Shown here: one piece after another, positions 53 to 29,600 of the stretch
Numbering within the stretch: position 1 is the first letter of the stretch
Layout of the letters: every line of letters starts with the position of its first letter
From: a virus
Taxonomy: Duplodnaviria > Caudoviricetes
IMG/VR virus record: IMGVR_UViG_3300017821_000056
Coordinates: 64,211-128,210 of that record
Direction: 5' to 3' (one strand)
Length of the DNA stretch: 64,000 nt
Program-made: the position numbers and the translations under genes
The notes under the pieces: model-generated
What the model saw: the letters and a program-made list of their open reading frames with translations, nothing else
Told to the model about the DNA's origin: nothing
The model's database searches: none

Positions 53-1053
53 ATGTCGACGCCGCTGCCCCTGGGTCTTACTCCGTATATATCTCCTACG
101 ACCCTGCTCACGGCGCCGACATTATCGAAATTGGAATTGATTTTAGTTCGATACCTTCGGGCGACTACACCCAGCCTACGGAAAACTGGGCCGAGTGGTG
201 GAACATGACGGCCAGGGCCACGTCGCGTGTCGACGGCTATTGTTCCCAGGTCTTGCGTGCCACCATCGACACTGAGCCGCTGCACGGCCCGGACTACCGG
301 GTCACCGTGGGCCCCGCTGCGGGCGGATCGTACCCGACGCCGTACTGGGGGAACTCCGGGGCGCAGAACGCGCGGCTGATCCTGTCCCGGTGGCCGGTGC
401 TGCAGGTGACGAACGTGGCGACCTGCCCGAACTCGCTGTGGCCAAGGTCGTGGACGAACCTGCCGGCCGGGTACTACGAGCCCGAGGTGCCCACTCTCGG
501 CGTGTACGGCTCCATCTCCCCGGCCGGGTCCGCTGACGGGGGGCAGGCGATCCTGGTCGGCGGCGGGTACATCGACTGGTCTTACGGGCGTAACGGGTGG
601 GCGATCCTGGTCACCTATATCAACGGGTGGCCGCACTGCTCCCTCACCTCGGCTGTGGCGGCAGGGGCCACGTCGCTGCCGGTGAACGACTGCACCGGGT
701 GGGGGATAACGGACTACAACAGCGTCTTCACCGGGGCGACCGGCCGGATCGTGGACTCGGGCGCCCAGGAAGCCATCCACGTCACGGCCACGTCGGCGGC
801 GTCGGGGCCGGGGAACCTGACCCTCTCCTCGCCGCTGAATTTCGCCCACACCGCGCAGACGCTTGTCACTACCTTGCCGGCGTCGATCGAGCAGGCGTGC
901 ATCCTGTTCTGCGTCGCGGAGGCCCTGACGAGGGGGGCGACGACGACGACGATCCATGACATCGGCGGGCACGCGCAGTCCACCGGGGGGGACGTGGCAG
1001 GGCTGACAGCGGAGGCCGAGCTCTTGTGCCATCCGTTCCGCAGAACTGTATAA
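53..1053 (+). CDS. Head-to-tail adaptor-like virion protein; 5' end apparently split by an 11-nt TTA-initiated gap (122-132)
   Basis: GGGGGGTGA SD-like run, then ATG53 (MSTPLPLGLTPYISPTTLLTAPT). Coding resumes in the frame of ORF 205 at GGA133 (GIDFSSIP...). C-terminal ...LPASIEQACIL...AELLCHPFRR is adaptor-like; gene lies upstream of tail genes. Confidence 0.6.
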
Positions 1054-1094
1054 GTCTCGGTATGGAGTGGCGAGTCATTTTGCTACAGTGGGGC

Positions 1095-1808
1095 ATGGCA
1101 ACCTGCACAGCAGCCGATGACTGCGAGAAGCCCCCGTTCCGGCGCGGCTGGTGCTCCATGCACTACTCGCGATGGCAGCGGTACGGCGACTTCACCACCG
1201 TAAATAAGCCCGGCAACCCTCGGCAACTAGGCGACTGCCACCTCTGCGACAAGCCGGCTCTCGCCCGCGACATGTGCATCAAGCACTACACCCGCTGGCA
1301 GCGGTACGGCGACCCGACGGTTACGAAGCTAGATCGGGACCGCACGCCAGAGGAGCGCTTCTGGCCGCGCGTCAACAAGGACGGTCCAGTATCCGCTCAC
1401 CGGCCCGACCTCGGCCCGTGCTGGGTGTGGACCGGCGGCCTCGCAGAGGGCTACGGGATGTTCTGGCTCGACGGCCGCAACATCCACGCGCACATCGTGT
1501 CCTTCACTTGGGAGTACGGCGACATCCCCGAAGGCTGGGAGCGCGACCATCTCTGCCGCAACCGTGCATGCGTGCGACCTGACCATCTTGAAGCCGTAAC
1601 CCACTGGACAAACGTGGCGCGCGGCATCTCTCCGCACGGGCTGAACGCGGCCAAGACGAAGTGCCGTAACGGCCATGACTTCACGCCGGAAAACACGCGC
1701 GTGAATAGCAAGGGCCAGCGCGTTTGCATCGCCTGCGCTCGCGCAGCATGTTTGCGGTGGTACCACCGTCAGCGCCAGACGGAACCGGTGGCCGACGCCC
1801 TGTTCTAA
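1095..1808 (+). CDS. Free-standing HNH homing endonuclease
   Basis: CWVWTG...YG, DHLCRNRACVRPDHLEAVTHWTN, KCRNGH..CIAC; two N-terminal C..HY.RW.RYGD repeats; TACAGT -10 at 1084 suggests a leaderless start. Confidence 0.9.
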   Translation: MATCTAADDCEKPPFRRGWCSMHYSRWQRYGDFTTVNKPGNPRQLGDCHLCDKPALARDMCIKHYTRWQRYGDPTVTKLDRDRTPEERFWPRVNKDGPVSAHRPDLGPCWVWTGGLAEGYGMFWLDGRNIHAHIVSFTWEYGDIPEGWERDHLCRNRACVRPDHLEAVTHWTNVARGISPHGLNAAKTKCRNGHDFTPENTRVNSKGQRVCIACARAACLRWYHRQRQTEPVADALF

Positions 1809-4727: not shown

Positions 4728-6119
4728 GTGAGCCTCGGAACGCCGAACATCTATCCGGGTGTGCTCACCTACATGGGCATCGCACGCGAGCTGACGGCCG
4801 GCACGCCGATCGTGCCCGTGATCACCCACCCGCTGAACCAGTCCGAGTTCGAGCCCGAGGACATGCCCCGCTTCCTCGATGACAAGGCCATCCGCGGATC
4901 GATGACGGACCTGTTCTATAAGACGCTCGGCGTCGAGTCGGCCACGTTCAGCCTGGGCGGCCCCAACTTCCTCGACACCCACGGCTATTTCTTCGACAAC
5001 GTGTTCGGGGACCTGTCCACGACGGGCACCGGCGCCCTGAACCCGGCCACGTTCAACTCGGCGCTCGCGGTCGGCGCGACCCAGGGAACCCTGTCCGCCG
5101 TCCCTCCCGCCCAGTACACGGCCGGGGCGGTCCTCCAGATCGGGACCGGGGCGACCACCGAAGTCGTCGTCATCGGCTCCACCGCCGCCTCCAACGTGGT
5201 CAACTTCGCGATCAGCTCGGGCGGGGAAGCGTACCCGCTGCGGTTCACCCACCCGACCGGCCCGACGGTGAGCACGGTCACATCCCCGTACACCCACAAG
5301 TGGGCCGCCCTCAACTCGGCGCTCGGCTACGGCGGCGCGTACGGGGCGCAGCCCCCCACGCACACCCTGACCGACGTGACGAACCTGGTCAACACGTTCA
5401 CCAGCGCCACCTACGGCACCGTCGCCACCTCCACCTACGGGGCGCGGCAGTACCCGAGCGCCGTCCTCAAGGACATCTCGTTCTCCGGGAACGCCGAGCA
5501 GCTCCTCAACATCCGGATGACCGGCGACTCGTGGCTGTCGGTGATCGCCGGGACCGCCGTCACCAACGTGACGACGAACAGCCGGCCCATCCCGAACTGG
5601 ACCGCCACCGTCGTCCTCGCGGGCAACACGATCAGCAGCAGCAACACCTACAACGGGGTCGGCGAGTTCAACGTCAGCGCCAAGCGCGCCACCCAGGTGT
5701 ACTGGACCGTCCAGGGCACCCAGACCCCGTACATCATCGCCCGCGGCCCGCTGACGATGGACGGCACCATCCAGTTCGACCCGTCGAACTCCGAGATGCC
5801 GCTGGACCTGATGCTGCTGAACAGCCAGGCGCCCCTGAGCATCTCGCTGACCAACGCGAACATCACGAACGCGGGCACCCCGTTCACGCTGACATTCACG
5901 ATGTCCCAGGCGGCGATGACCAAGTCCAAGATCATGCGGAACAAGGCTCTCCTGGGCTTCGGGAACACCATGGAAGCCGTTGCTAACTCAACGGATACGG
6001 GTGGTAGCGGAGGGTTGGGGCCGGGGACGATTACGCTCGTCAACAACACGGCCGTATACGCTCTGTCATCAGATGACTTCGATCTGTATCTGGCGGCGCG
6101 GCACCTGTCGGAGGTCTAG
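4728..6119 (+). CDS. Major tail tube protein (with inserted Thr/Gly-rich domain)
   Basis: YMGIARE...GTP, LDDKAIRGSM tube-like motifs; lies upstream of chaperone and tape measure. Confidence 0.8.
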   Translation: MSLGTPNIYPGVLTYMGIARELTAGTPIVPVITHPLNQSEFEPEDMPRFLDDKAIRGSMTDLFYKTLGVESATFSLGGPNFLDTHGYFFDNVFGDLSTTGTGALNPATFNSALAVGATQGTLSAVPPAQYTAGAVLQIGTGATTEVVVIGSTAASNVVNFAISSGGEAYPLRFTHPTGPTVSTVTSPYTHKWAALNSALGYGGAYGAQPPTHTLTDVTNLVNTFTSATYGTVATSTYGARQYPSAVLKDISFSGNAEQLLNIRMTGDSWLSVIAGTAVTNVTTNSRPIPNWTATVVLAGNTISSSNTYNGVGEFNVSAKRATQVYWTVQGTQTPYIIARGPLTMDGTIQFDPSNSEMPLDLMLLNSQAPLSISLTNANITNAGTPFTLTFTMSQAAMTKSKIMRNKALLGFGNTMEAVANSTDTGGSGGLGPGTITLVNNTAVYALSSDDFDLYLAARHLSEV

Positions 6120-6859
6120 CCGGCTTCTTGCTGGCGCTTTCGCTCGCGCATGCGCCGCTTGCGTTCTCGGGCAAGTTCTCGGACATGCTCCTGCTGCTCG
6201 GGACTCAGTTCCGAGACCTTCGGGATCAGTCCTTCTGCCTGCCGGCGGCGTTGCTGCTCGCGAGCGCGAGCGCGGCGCTTCTCAAGCTCATTGGGCGGCA
6301 GGTCGGCCGATGGTGTCCACACCTGCTTGCCTGTCGCTTTCCTCGCGTAGTACTGCTCCAGTCCGCGCTCGCGCTTGCAGGTCAGGCAGACCCGGCTCCC
6401 CTTGTTGTTGATCATGGTGTTCTCGGGCGTGTACTCATGACCCTGCGGGCACTCGGTGACATTCAACTGCCACGTAGTCCCGTGGCGGTGCTTGTCTCGC
6501 ATGTTCTCGGCATGGGTCCCGTAGATCAGGTTGCCGCCAGCGGCCACGGTCTCCGCTTCATCGCCGGGTGCCCAGCGGTTGTTGCCGGGGTTGCCGTCCA
6601 GGTGGCGGACTTCCTGCCCTTCGGGGCAGGGGCCGACGAACGCCTCCATGACGATCTTGTGGACCTGGCGGGGCTTCTGCTTGCCGTCTTTGGTCAGGGT
6701 GACCCAGTGGTATCCGTTCGCCTTGACAATGACGTGCTTGAGGATGCCGCCGCGGGTTGTTGCTCGCGGCTCGCTCCAGACGTCACCCCGGTCTGATACG
6801 CGGTACAGGCCCTCGTAGTCAGGTACCCAGGCCCAGCGTTCGGGCGTAACGTCATCCAT
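6116..6859 (-). CDS. NUMOD4-HNH homing endonuclease
   Basis: ERWAWVPDYEGLYRVSDRG (NUMOD4); VHKIVMEAFVGPCPEGQEVRHLDGNPGNN...NL; CPQGH..CLTC. Confidence 0.9.
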   Translation of the reverse strand: MDDVTPERWAWVPDYEGLYRVSDRGDVWSEPRATTRGGILKHVIVKANGYHWVTLTKDGKQKPRQVHKIVMEAFVGPCPEGQEVRHLDGNPGNNRWAPGDEAETVAAGGNLIYGTHAENMRDKHRHGTTWQLNVTECPQGHEYTPENTMINNKGSRVCLTCKRERGLEQYYARKATGKQVWTPSADLPPNELEKRRARAREQQRRRQAEGLIPKVSELSPEQQEHVRELARERKRRMRERKRQQEAG

Positions 6860-6890
6860 GTCGGAACCTCTCATCCAGGTTTCGGCCACG

Positions 6891-6941
6891 CCCCCGGACG
6901 ATTTGCACTCGTCGCGGGGGTCTTTTCGTGCCTACATTCTA
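6891..6941. promoter_or_regulatory. Hairpin (terminator-like on +) and TAGAAT -10 box (on -) upstream of the HNH gene
   Basis: CCCCCG-GACGA...TCGTC-G-CGGGGG then TCTTTT; ATTCTA at 6936-6941. Confidence 0.55.
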
Positions 6942-7010
6942 CCAGCTAGGAGCGGCGAATGGGCTTTGCCTCGCGGCATTCAGCCTCCCGCATAGGGGAG
7001 GTGATGCTTT

Positions 7011-8225
7011 ATGGCTAGGCTTATGTGGCACTCATGTGCTCCGTGGTCTGCCAGTTTAAAATGCGGATACGGAACCCAGACCGCGATCTGGACCCGGAAG
7101 CTCAAGGAAATGGGCCATGAGGTCCTGATCAGCAATTTCTGGGGACTGCATGGCTGTTCCCTGGAATGGAACGGCATCCCGGTGCTGCCCGCGTTCGGCG
7201 GGTCGTACTGCACCCCGTCGCTCGCCCAGCATGCGAAGCACGCGGACCCGGACCTGATCATCTGCCTGGGTGACATCTGGCCGATGGACCCGTCGCTGAT
7301 GGCCGGGCTGCCTTTGGCGCACTGGCTGCCGTCGGACTGCCGGCCGATGTCGATGGCGGACCGGGAGAAGGCGGAGGCGGCGGGGCCGCAGCTGATCGCG
7401 ATGTCCCGGTTCGGGGAGGCCCGGTTCCGGGCGGCCGGGTTCCGGGATGTCCGGTACGTGCCGCACGGCATCGACCTGGAGGCGTTCAGGCCGCCGGAGG
7501 ACCGGGACGCGCTCCGGAAGGCGGCGGGGCTGGACGGGGCGTTCGTGGTGGGCGCGAACATGGCCAACAATGACGCGATCCGCAAGGCATTGCCCGAGAT
7601 CATGCTGGCGTTCGCCCGGTTCCACTCCGACCATCCGGATGCGCTGCTGGCCCTGCACACGGGGGTGCACCAGGACGGCGGCCAGGACCTGGAGGCGATC
7701 GCGGAGAACCTGGGGATCACGGACCGGTGCAAGGTGGTGGACCAGTACCGGTACACGTCCGGGTTCGTCACCGAGGAGGACCTGCGCGGCTGGTACGGGA
7801 CGGTTGACGTGCTGTGCGCGGCGTCGTACGCGGAGGGGTTCGGGCTGCCGATCGTGGAAGCCCAGGCCGTCGGCTGCCCGGTGATCACGACGGCGTGCTC
7901 GAGCATGGAAGAGCTTAACCCGCTGGGGATCTCGGTGGACGGCTCGCCATTTTGGAATGGCGTCCATCGCGCCTGGTGGGTCCGCCCCGACGTCCGCGGG
8001 CTTTACGAGGCGTTCTGCCTGGCATACGAAAACCGCGACAGCGTGGACCGGGGGAAGCTGCGGGAGTTCGCGGCCGGCAACTACGAGGTGGGCCACGTGG
8101 CGGAAACGTACATGAAGCCCGTCGTCGATGAGCTTCTGGAAGTTATGGCACAGCGGCGCGGGAAGCGCCCGGAACTACAGGAAGCAGGCGCGGATGCGGA
8201 TAACGCTGCCGTCGAAGCAGGCTGA
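7011..8225 (+). CDS. GT-B (family 4-like) glycosyltransferase
   Basis: GYG near N-terminus, VPHGID, ASYAEGFGLPIVEAQAVGCPVI. Confidence 0.9.
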   Translation: MARLMWHSCAPWSASLKCGYGTQTAIWTRKLKEMGHEVLISNFWGLHGCSLEWNGIPVLPAFGGSYCTPSLAQHAKHADPDLIICLGDIWPMDPSLMAGLPLAHWLPSDCRPMSMADREKAEAAGPQLIAMSRFGEARFRAAGFRDVRYVPHGIDLEAFRPPEDRDALRKAAGLDGAFVVGANMANNDAIRKALPEIMLAFARFHSDHPDALLALHTGVHQDGGQDLEAIAENLGITDRCKVVDQYRYTSGFVTEEDLRGWYGTVDVLCAASYAEGFGLPIVEAQAVGCPVITTACSSMEELNPLGISVDGSPFWNGVHRAWWVRPDVRGLYEAFCLAYENRDSVDRGKLREFAAGNYEVGHVAETYMKPVVDELLEVMAQRRGKRPELQEAGADADNAAVEAG

Positions 8226-22961: not shown

Positions 22962-23156
22962 GTGAAGTGGGGCGTGGCTGCGGTGTGCATTTACGAGGCG
23001 GCCTCGATCACGACCGGCAGGACACCGACGATCACCATGCTCTGCGCCCGCCACAGATGGCTTGCCCCGGCCGTGCTGGCGACGCTCGCTGTTCATCTGT
23101 ACCGGCAGCCGCGAATGCAGCGGCACAGCAAAAGCCCCCAGGAGGCGCGTGCATGA
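22962..23156 (+). CDS. Small membrane protein
   Basis: Two hydrophobic segments after the endolysin. Confidence 0.55.
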   Translation: MKWGVAAVCIYEAASITTGRTPTITMLCARHRWLAPAVLATLAVHLYRQPRMQRHSKSPQEARA

Positions 23157-24295
23157 TACTGGGATGGCAAGGTAACAGCCCCACTACTAACAGTGGCTAC
23201 GGCAAGATGACTGCCCTGTTCGTCCCCCGCATTGCCGCCCTCGGACATGAGTTCGCCTTCATATCCTCCCCGTACTCGTTCGGCGGATCCCCGATCGAGT
23301 GGAACGGCATCCCGATCCTGGGGACGGCCCGGGACATCGCCGGAAACGACACCATCCTGAGAAACCACGAGTACTTCAAGGCTGACCTCACGATTACCCT
23401 CGCGGACCCGTTCGGGCTGCTGAGATCCGCGAAGGAACTCGCCCAGATCAATCTGGCGTCCTGGTTCCCGGTGGACACGAGTCCCGTCGGCTACGGCGAC
23501 GTGACGTTCCTGCGCGAAAGCGGGACCATCCCCATCGCGATGTCCCTGTTCGGGAAGAATGCCCTTGAGAACGAGGGATGCGAGCCGCTGCTGGTCCCCC
23601 ACGGGTTCGACCCGGGCATCTACCATCCCGGCCCCCGCAGCTACCGGGACACGATCCCCGGCGTCACGGATGACACGTTCGTGATCGGGCTGTGCGCGAT
23701 GAACCGGGACCCGAACCGGAAGGGGTTCTTCGAGCAGTTCGCGGCGTTCTCCCGGCTCCACGCGAGGCACCCGGACAGCTTCCTGGCGGTGCACAGTTCC
23801 CCCGGCGGCGGCGGGAAGGGCCTGAACCTGCACGGGATGGCGTGCCAGCTGGGGATCTCGGCAGCCGTCGGCTTCCCCGACTCCTACAGCTACGACCTGG
23901 GGCTGATCACCGAGGAGCAGATGGCGGCCTGGTACAACGGGCTGGACGTCCTGTCCTTGTGTTCTTACGGCGAGGGTTTCGGTTTGCCGCTCATCGAAGC
24001 TCAGGCGTGCGGCGTCCCGGTGATCACCACCGACGCCGCGTCGATGACGGAACTGTGCGGGGCCGGGTTCCTCGTCTCGGGGACCCCGTTCTGGTCAGAT
24101 GGCCACACCTCCATGTGGACGCGGCCTGACATCTCCGACATCGACGCGGCATACGAGGCGGCGTGGAACGCATGGCAGCAGGGCGCGCTCCCGTGCAAGC
24201 CCGCGGCGGACTTCGCCGCGCAGTTCGCCGCGGACAAGGTGCTCGAGGACTTCTGGAAGCCTGCCCTGGCCGAATTGGAGGAACGGATCGGATGA
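23153..24295 (+). CDS. GT-B (family 4-like) glycosyltransferase, paralog of 7011
   Basis: NSGYG, VPHGFD, SYGEGFGLPLIEAQACGVPVI; GGAGG SD. Confidence 0.9.
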   Translation: MILGWQGNSPTTNSGYGKMTALFVPRIAALGHEFAFISSPYSFGGSPIEWNGIPILGTARDIAGNDTILRNHEYFKADLTITLADPFGLLRSAKELAQINLASWFPVDTSPVGYGDVTFLRESGTIPIAMSLFGKNALENEGCEPLLVPHGFDPGIYHPGPRSYRDTIPGVTDDTFVIGLCAMNRDPNRKGFFEQFAAFSRLHARHPDSFLAVHSSPGGGGKGLNLHGMACQLGISAAVGFPDSYSYDLGLITEEQMAAWYNGLDVLSLCSYGEGFGLPLIEAQACGVPVITTDAASMTELCGAGFLVSGTPFWSDGHTSMWTRPDISDIDAAYEAAWNAWQQGALPCKPAADFAAQFAADKVLEDFWKPALAELEERIG

Positions 24296-28874: not shown

Positions 28875-29600
28875 GTGGCAGCGCCGACCCTCATCCAGTA
28901 CGCCGAGACCAGCTGGACCACCCCCGATACTGCGAAAACCACTGGCAGTATCACCTGGCTAGCCGGGGATGTCATCGTCGCCGTCGCCGGGGACGAGAGC
29001 CAGCGGACCATCCCCACGCCGACGTTCGCCGGCGGCACGTTCGTCGCGATCACTGGCGCGGCCTGCACTAACGCCAGCAACTGCGCCGCCAACGCCTGGT
29101 CCTGCACCCCGGTCTCGGGGGGGTCCGGCGCGGTCAGCATCGCGCTCACGCCGGACATCGACGGTCTCGGCGTCTGGGTGTGGCGGAATAGCGGCGGCAT
29201 CGGGAATGTCGGCTCATCCACTTCGACAGCCAACAACAACCTGACCCAGAGCCTCATCCGGTCCGGTAATAATTCCTGCGTCGTGGGCGGCTGTTTCGAC
29301 TGGAGCGCGACCGCGACCACGGGTTACGGCTGGACGCCGACTGTGGCAAATGACCGGCAGCACGGCCAGGTCAGCGGCCAGTATTCCTATTATGTCGCGG
29401 ACTGGGGTGATCAGGGCAGCGCGGGTACCACCTCCTACGGCCTCACCGGGATTACCGCCGGACCGTTCGCCCGGCTGTTCGTGGAAATCCTGGGCAAAGC
29501 TGCCGCCGCCGTCAGCAAGGCGGGGTCTCCCGTGAAAGCGAAACTTCCCTGGCAGCATGACCTGACCCTTGAACCTCCCGGTCTCATTTACGTCAATTAA
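28875..29600 (+). CDS. Ser/Thr/Gly-rich virion protein
   Basis: AGDVIVAVAG motif; GC3-rich ORF. Confidence 0.65.
   Translation: MAAPTLIQYAETSWTTPDTAKTTGSITWLAGDVIVAVAGDESQRTIPTPTFAGGTFVAITGAACTNASNCAANAWSCTPVSGGSGAVSIALTPDIDGLGVWVWRNSGGIGNVGSSTSTANNNLTQSLIRSGNNSCVVGGCFDWSATATTGYGWTPTVANDRQHGQVSGQYSYYVADWGDQGSAGTTSYGLTGITAGPFARLFVEILGKAAAAVSKAGSPVKAKLPWQHDLTLEPPGLIYVN

Follow-up and report, generated by a model that had tools for sequence, protein, structure and literature searches.

A nine-nucleotide TTA insert in a phage glycosyltransferase gene, probably a UUA-led coding gap of in-frame length

Nine nucleotides that interrupt a conserved motif of a phage glycosyltransferase gene (TTA AAA TGC, 7056-7064) are probably, judging from the comparison of sequences presented here, a UUA-led coding-gap cassette of the kind described in the phiHau3 terminase, in a version divisible by three. 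For this allele we lean slightly towards a translational hop as the main productive route. The allele can be either bypassed or translated as Leu-Lys-Cys, and sequence alone does not choose between the two; we lean to hopping because it is unavoidable at the other TTA gap of the same phage and because in-frame gaps in relatives keep their landing codons.

The window, meaning the whole stretch of 64,000 nucleotides that was analysed, makes up the second half of one 128,210-bp contig (G000) with 68.7% GC and phage structural genes, and a search for tRNA genes across the 128,210-bp genome found none. The insert and its surroundings are laid out as follows.

6995..7004, plus strand: ribosome-binding site GGGGAGGTGA, 6 nt before the ATG at 7011, read from the sequence
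7011..8225, plus strand: GT1, GT4-type (GT-B) glycosyltransferase gene, 404 codons, Pfam Glycos_transf_1 and Glyco_trans_1_4
7053..7055, plus strand: AGT, Ser15, candidate take-off codon, a rare wobble-U codon present in all AGY-type insert alleles
7056..7058, plus strand: in-frame TTA, the sole TTA codon of GT1, candidate stall ("hungry") codon
7056..7064, plus strand: 9-nt insert TTA AAA TGC, encoding L16-K17-C18, a gap in BLASTP against the paralog and missing from orthologs
7062..7064, plus strand: TGC, inferred candidate near-cognate landing codon for Ser-tRNA(GCU), pairing at positions 2 and 3
7065..7073, plus strand: GGA TAC GGA, the G-Y-G motif, candidate resume point; G19, Y20 and G21 are invariant in 70 orthologs
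23153..24295, plus strand: GT2, paralog of GT1 (35% identity), with the canonical loop N-S-G-Y-G and without the insert

GT1 has 677 homologs at E<=1e-10 and carries the hallmarks of the GT4/GT-B class, namely the Glycos_transf_1 domain, two Rossmann-like halves and an E-x7-E motif, with E275 and E283 invariant; its AF2 model (pLDDT 89) alternates strands and helices in both halves. Since the ribosome-binding site lies ahead of the ATG at 7011, the 15 codons preceding the insert are translated. Around the site the codons run GCC (7050-52), AGT (7053-55), TTA (7056-58), AAA (7059-61), TGC (7062-64) and GGA TAC GGA (7065-73), and an equivalent placement of the 9 nt in the DNA is 7055-7063, inside an AGC Ser codon. 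GT1 thus reads W-S-A-S-LKC-G-Y-G, and about 75% of orthologs read W-S-x-S-G-Y-G. The three extra residues fall in the beta1-alpha1 loop (beta1 3-8 and alpha1 20-33 in the AF2 model), within residues 11-20, whose pLDDT of 69 marks the only low-confidence stretch of the N-terminal half.

Both codons at the upstream edge of the insert are unusual for this genome. AGT occurs 93 times vs 636 times for AGC, and a crude gene call of the 128-kb genome, with about 35,500 codons, includes no more than 13 TTA codons, several of which belong to doubtful ORFs. The string TTTAAAAT is one of 15 A/T-only runs of at least 7 nt in the genome. A further TTA at 8143 was considered as a GT1 codon and rejected, the GT1 frame there being GTT ATG. 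Other in-frame TTA codons were noted in passing. Two of them, nine codons apart, lie in a putative 178-codon ORF on the minus strand outside the window (G000 38040 and 38067), one reading GCT TTA GCG and resembling the in-frame GCT TTA GCC allele of L181 listed below; another lies in ATTTTTTA (2278-2285, one of four 8-nt A/T-only runs in the genome), where the ORF 1920-2768, which has no Pfam match, reads GAT TTT TTA CAG; and a tandem TTA TTA occupies an 8-nt A/T-only run at 29267-29274 in a 179-codon ORF on the minus strand. The two GT4 paralogs of G000 sit among virion genes.

Across 6850-7350 the window was identical to a Logan contig (12.4 kb at depth 13) assembled independently from the probable source sample; because this second assembly agrees over the site, the window allele is not an assembly slip. 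Among sequencing runs, the stretch was found only in the probable source run, with only fragments of relatives in X2, X3 and X6; no RNA run contained it.

The sequence-only reading had described a 9-nt TTA insert lacking from the in-window paralog, and this held exactly: BLASTP of GT1 against GT2 opened a 3-residue gap in GT2 precisely opposite L16-K17-C18. Its use of the paralog as an internal control stands insofar as GT2 is free of the insert, but the control is weak; the GT2 orthologs (L280-L282, n=3) are equally canonical. A loose hairpin that the same reading had drawn over the site (CCAG/CTGG with GCGG/CCGC) does appear in the minimum-free-energy fold of 7035-7105 but did not stand out from shuffled sequences (z = -1.1). 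Similarly, the fold of 6990-7130 was no better than shuffled sequence (z = -1.4), insert alleles folded no better than canonical ones (mean z -0.66 for 22 vs -0.47 for 54), and the hairpin was not common to the other alleles. Neither a conserved RNA structure nor a Shine-Dalgarno-like element was found alongside the GT gaps.

We then compared the site among orthologs. The close set comprised 120 sequences of 60-74% identity, all from metagenomes or viral contigs, with the consensus P-W-S-x-S-G-Y-G. Not one of the 120 had a 3-residue insert; eight had two extra residues, always including a Leu, and another eight had been called only from M34. The closest ortholog (P0012, 74% identity) is called from M34. 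The distance from the start Met to G-Y-G was almost invariant in 150 more distant representatives, four of which had a loop longer or shorter by 1-5 residues, without Leu. Reading the site in the DNA of about 110 loci revealed inserts, confined to one group of four codons in the beta1-alpha1 loop, in 20 of the 58 distinct orthologs placed on the tree, and in 12 of 50 loci when these were sampled regardless of their N-terminus. The phages concerned are uncultured, rich in GC and come from soil and wetland. The inserts fell into 13 allele types, each with an in-frame TTA, which by length included the following.

4 nt: TAT-T-TAC, inside a Tyr codon
5 nt: AGT-TT-AGC, seen in four lineages, and ACT-TT-ACC, from a homolog of 40% identity that has Thr at this residue
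6 nt: AGT TTA AGC, GCT TTA GCC (L181), CCT TTA CCC and AGT TTA GGC
7 nt: AGT-TTAA-AGC, CCG-TTAG-CCG and AGT-TTAA-TGC (L040/L045)
9 nt: AGT TTA AAA TGC, the GT1 allele of the window

In every allele the TTA is in the upstream frame and lies immediately 3' of the take-off codon, which is usually NNT. A synonymous landing codon follows 4-7 nt past the take-off in 9 of the 13 allele types, so placed that re-pairing would restore the canonical motif, and take-off and landing codons covary across six codon families (AGT..AGC, ACT..ACC, TAT..TAC, CCT..CCC, GCT..GCC and CCG..CCG), with inserts sitting at three different codons. The TTA of the insert is the sole TTA in each of the 22 insert-bearing genes; canonical GT genes contain 4 TTA in 25,832 codons, and TTA makes up about 0.02-0.04% of codons in these genomes.

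About two-thirds of the inserts break the frame, with conserved flanks on both sides, and in-frame lengths account for about 7 of 20 lineages, the share expected by chance if frame were irrelevant. As frame-breaking lengths are thus about twice as common as in-frame ones, selection does not require the insert bases to be translated. All frame-breaking alleles keep a start codon, the conserved upstream peptide R-I-L-W-H-S-C-A-P-W and an intact downstream ORF of 362-373 codons, and they are therefore neither decaying pseudogenes nor N-terminally truncated enzymes. The internal start M34 was rejected as the functional form, codons 1-15 and 19-33 being conserved in separate frames of the frame-broken alleles. 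In a tree of 68 GTs, inserts were interspersed with canonical alleles and well-supported branches forced at least 11 changes; GT1 formed the longest terminal branch of its clade (0.42), which could reflect relaxed constraint. The earlier proposal that TTA-initiated inserts are real elements is hence borne out, and they recur, since all 13 allele types contain the in-frame TTA and most would need recoding, and the observation that would have spoken against it, 3-residue insertions with ordinary codons among homologs, was not made in the orthologs at this position.

Searches beyond the ortholog set added little. The exact 9-nt allele gave two matches in viral contigs, both by chance, in 36%-GC phages, and none in any other phage contig; no relative was found in bacterial genomes; and the best matches among cultured relatives in the phage collection were 35% for GT1, 24% for the head-to-tail gene described below and none for the capsid. 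A generic scan for frame-breaking patterns of a codon and its landing was uninformative, TTA scoring no higher than control triplets, and its best match in the genome (G000 50594) was discarded as a false frame.

A second TTA-led gap lies near the start of the window, and homing-endonuclease genes adjoin both gaps.

53..1053, plus strand: head-to-tail adaptor-like gene, split by an 11-nt TTA-led frame-breaking gap at 122-132
1026..1808, plus strand: HNH_3 homing-endonuclease gene, the second of the two, overlapping the stop of the head-to-tail gene (Pfam; tblastn)
6116..6889, minus strand: NUMOD4 and HNH_3 homing-endonuclease gene, divergent from GT1, whose start lies 122 nt away (Pfam)

From an ATG at 53 preceded by a ribosome-binding site, frame 2 encodes the N-terminus of the head-to-tail family as far as A-P-T and then meets TTA; frame 1 resumes with G-I-D-F at 133, and full-length homologs read A-P-T-G-I-D-W. 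The take-off codon is ACA, the triplet ahead of the resume point is ATT and the resume codon is GGA. On this sequence evidence, an apparently essential virion gene of the phage depends on skipping a TTA-led gap. Orthologs contain eleven further TTA-led gaps (5, 7, 10, 16 and 26 nt), all within one set of five codons; in the viral contigs concerned (L192-L279) they fall at codons 21-27 of the gene. The 26-nt gap (L199) has GGAGGG inside it and a TAA in the resume frame, and this stop excludes simple frameshifting there. Among the 12 head-to-tail gaps, seven landings are synonymous, three have a first-position mismatch (GGT>AGC twice and ACA>TCA, in the obligatory gaps of L205, L258 and L219) and two have a middle-position mismatch, including the window's own (ACA>ATT). 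Near-cognate landings like the AGT>TGC of GT1 thus appear to be tolerated in nature, and the suggestion that AGT and TGC act as take-off and landing codons is compatible with what these related genes do at gaps they must cross. Internal Met codons had been called as starts in 37 of 120 head-to-tail homologs, calls that probably stem from the TTA gaps.

Two resemblances between the gaps were also recorded. The two gaps in this genome share the ending AAAT(T/GC), with GGA coming next, and an identical 7-nt filler, TTAATGC, stands after the take-off codon in L212 (head-to-tail) and in L040/L045 (GT), unrelated genes of different phages; this may be a coincidence or a hint of copied gap sequences.

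The HNH_3 protein (1026-1808) and the NUMOD4-HNH protein (6116-6889) share 31% identity over 112 residues. Among GT loci with enough upstream DNA, searched with three query proteins, an HNH relative adjoined 6 of 16 insert-bearing and 3 of 42 canonical loci (odds ratio 7.8, Fisher p = 0.0096, a statistic that ignores the kinship of these phylogenetically related loci). An insert and an adjacent HNH gene thus co-occur at GT loci, although the association is moderate; at 10 of the 16 insert-bearing loci the three query proteins detected no HNH gene.

These observations bear directly on how the window allele should be read. An ordinary 3-residue indel in a tolerant loop, without recoding and with its rare codons due to chance, would draw support from the four distant representatives with altered loops, but we regard it as highly improbable: inserts of ordinary codons were seen in none of the orthologs, the in-frame TTA is there in 13 of 13 allele types despite its rarity as a codon, and most inserts destroy the frame. 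Hardly more credible is a hypermutable indel hot spot, with phase variation or recurrent pseudogenisation through T/A runs and the window as the "on" allele. Glycosyltransferases are classic phase-variable genes, and lengths of 4 to 9 nt with A runs of 1 to 4 would suit such a mechanism; however, runs as short as these (1-4 bases) do not slip, the source-sample reads assembled into a single contig free of length variants, and the head-to-tail gene, an essential one, shows the same grammar with gaps reaching 26 nt. Nor would a hot spot explain why take-off and landing codons covary, why the in-frame TTA is invariant or why inserts sit at three different codons. A programmed -1 frameshift at T TTA AAA (7055-7061), where the heptamer fits X XXY YYZ in the zero frame, is just as implausible as the ordinary indel, given that the -1 frame meets a stop after about 20 codons without any conserved coding content, that no downstream stimulatory structure rises above shuffles (z = -1.1), and that the heptamer is absent from the other alleles.

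The competitor that deserves most attention is a fossil, which we judge less likely than not: the insert would descend from a bypass cassette and now only be translated, yielding a glycosyltransferase with Leu-Lys-Cys in its loop. Any effect remaining would come from the rare-codon run AGT, TTA, AAA (codons 15-17), which would throttle translation or tie GT1 to the UUA tRNA in the manner of bldA. The length divisible by three and the imperfect landing codon agree with such a history, as does the closeness of the allele to the frame-breaking 7-nt alleles (L048/L058 and L040), just 2 nt away, expected if restoration of the frame rescued a broken landing codon; in addition, the model puts the loop at the surface with low pLDDT, and GT1 keeps all 80-odd invariant residues of the family. 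Conversely, in-frame lengths among the GT gaps do not exceed chance, most other in-frame alleles keep a matched landing codon, suggesting that in-frame gaps are skipped too, and loop length is nearly invariant across the wider family. Moreover, an essential virion gene of the same genome needs its TTA gap to be bypassed, and UUA must therefore decode slowly during late expression.

For the reading that we prefer, an in-frame version of a bypass cassette, the balance is as follows. In the window allele, UUA lies directly 3' of the last conserved codon, the insert is missing from orthologs in which its flanks are contiguous, and TTA is otherwise nearly absent from the phage; the GT alleles and phiHau3 share one grammar, and the same genome has an obligatory 11-nt TTA gap. 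Counting against it, 9 nt leave the frame unbroken, so that the sequence requires no hop, and TGC matches Ser-tRNA(GCU) at two of three positions, with a first-position mismatch.

In mechanistic terms, Leu-tRNA(UAA) would be scarce in the host, as codon usage suggests, and the ribosome would pause with UUA in its A site. Peptidyl-tRNA on an NNU codon, held by the G:U wobble alone, would then release, re-pair a few bases downstream and let translation resume. In the window, the predicted hop is from AGU to UGC (+9), with the canonical protein as product; were UUA decoded instead, the same mRNA would give W-S-A-S-L-K-C-G-Y-G. At the DNA level, the insert may interrupt the target of the adjoining NUMOD4-HNH nuclease, and nuclease gene and gap would travel together, as do T4 mobA and gene 60. 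Such an immunity model would explain both the patchy distribution of the inserts and their position in an invariant motif.

The closest known parallel is the large terminase of the Streptomyces phage phiHau3, which has two 10-nt frame-breaking inserts, each starting with UUA (Antonov et al. 2023, PMC10732093). Smith et al. (2013), in the account given in PMC10732093, proposed that these inserts are bypassed when a bldA-type tRNA is lacking, and the bypass has support both from Streptomyces, where a full-length product was seen, and from E. coli, where a junction peptide was; inserts of this kind were reported in 3 of 100 terminase genes, those of phiHau3, the StrepC.1 prophage and an S. catenulae prophage (PMC10732093). 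Read directly from phiHau3 DNA, the junctions are GGC TTA CTC C GGT and TCT TTA ACG G TCC, both +10, and so have a longer spacer than the GT alleles. The systems share an in-frame rare UUA after the take-off codon, a short insert missing from orthologs, a synonymous landing (GGC>GGT and TCT>TCC in phiHau3), the near-absence of other TTA codons from the phage and a high-GC host background. In contrast, the genes here are a GT4 glycosyltransferase and a head-to-tail gene rather than a terminase; the GT gaps measure 4-9 nt vs 7-10 nt, with some landing codons overlapping the TTA; dozens of alleles occur in uncultured phages as opposed to three terminase genes; and the window allele is in frame, with a landing that is only near-cognate. 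An HNH gene also adjoins the gap here, and neither an internal SD nor a hairpin was detected.

The HNH neighbours recall T4, in which the gene 60 gap prevents the MobA nuclease encoded next to it from cleaving its own DNA (Bonocora et al. 2011, as cited in bioRxiv 10.1101/2022.08.31.505936). By that account, both involve an insert in a conserved motif of a phage gene beside a free-standing HNH gene, and a patchy distribution among relatives consistent with mobility. The T4 gap as portrayed there is 50 nt long, with a UAG following GGA, a stem-loop at take-off and a signal in the nascent peptide, features of which none was seen here; the NUMOD4-HNH nuclease would, by analogy, cut canonical GT alleles. 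Hops that occur at a low level in E. coli when a codon is slow or starved (Weiss et al. 1987, +5/+6; Gallant and Lindsley; both as cited in PMC10732093) resemble the proposed event in their short forward re-pairing on a cognate codon 5-7 nt downstream with an empty A site. According to the same summary they were synthetic or adventitious and inefficient, whereas here the arrangement is conserved in natural genes. The byps of Magnusiomyces capitatus mitochondria (Lang et al. 2014, as cited in PMC10732093) offer another comparison. By that account, they too are numerous mobile untranslated inserts inside conserved genes with matching take-off and landing codons, but they are mitochondrial, 27-55 nt long, structured and not triggered by UUA. 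Finally, Streptomyces genes under bldA/TTA control, adpA among them, depend on one tRNA for expression through a single rare TTA. There, TTA serves as a normal sense codon and the frame is uninterrupted, and the likeness extends only to the read-through alternative for the window allele.

A bolder view, which we entertain only tentatively and think doubtful on present sequences, is that UUA is effectively never a sense codon in this lineage, that HNH genes spread by means of short UUA gaps which immunise the conserved target motif and are skipped even at two-position pairing, and that the window allele is a two-product switch. If so, hopping would yield the canonical enzyme and a host containing the UUA tRNA would yield a loop-extended one, which would tie virion glycosylation to the physiological state of the host.

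Published examples of UUA-skipped inserts are so far confined to Streptomyces phage terminases. The window allele itself adds a modest point, as it needs no recoding; beside the three terminase genes that represent natural UUA-triggered bypass in the literature, however, the GT series provides 13 allele types (4-9 nt) and the head-to-tail series 12 gaps (5-26 nt). Together these series amount to a natural mutagenesis set of the take-off and landing pairs, spacings and mismatches that evolution has tolerated, whose rules are testable in reporters, and the neighbouring HNH genes connect two known kinds of phage bypass, the UUA gaps and the T4 mobA/gene 60 cassette. Since gene callers truncate such genes (8 of 120 GT and 37 of 120 head-to-tail homologs), intact genes of this type are systematically missed in phage annotations.
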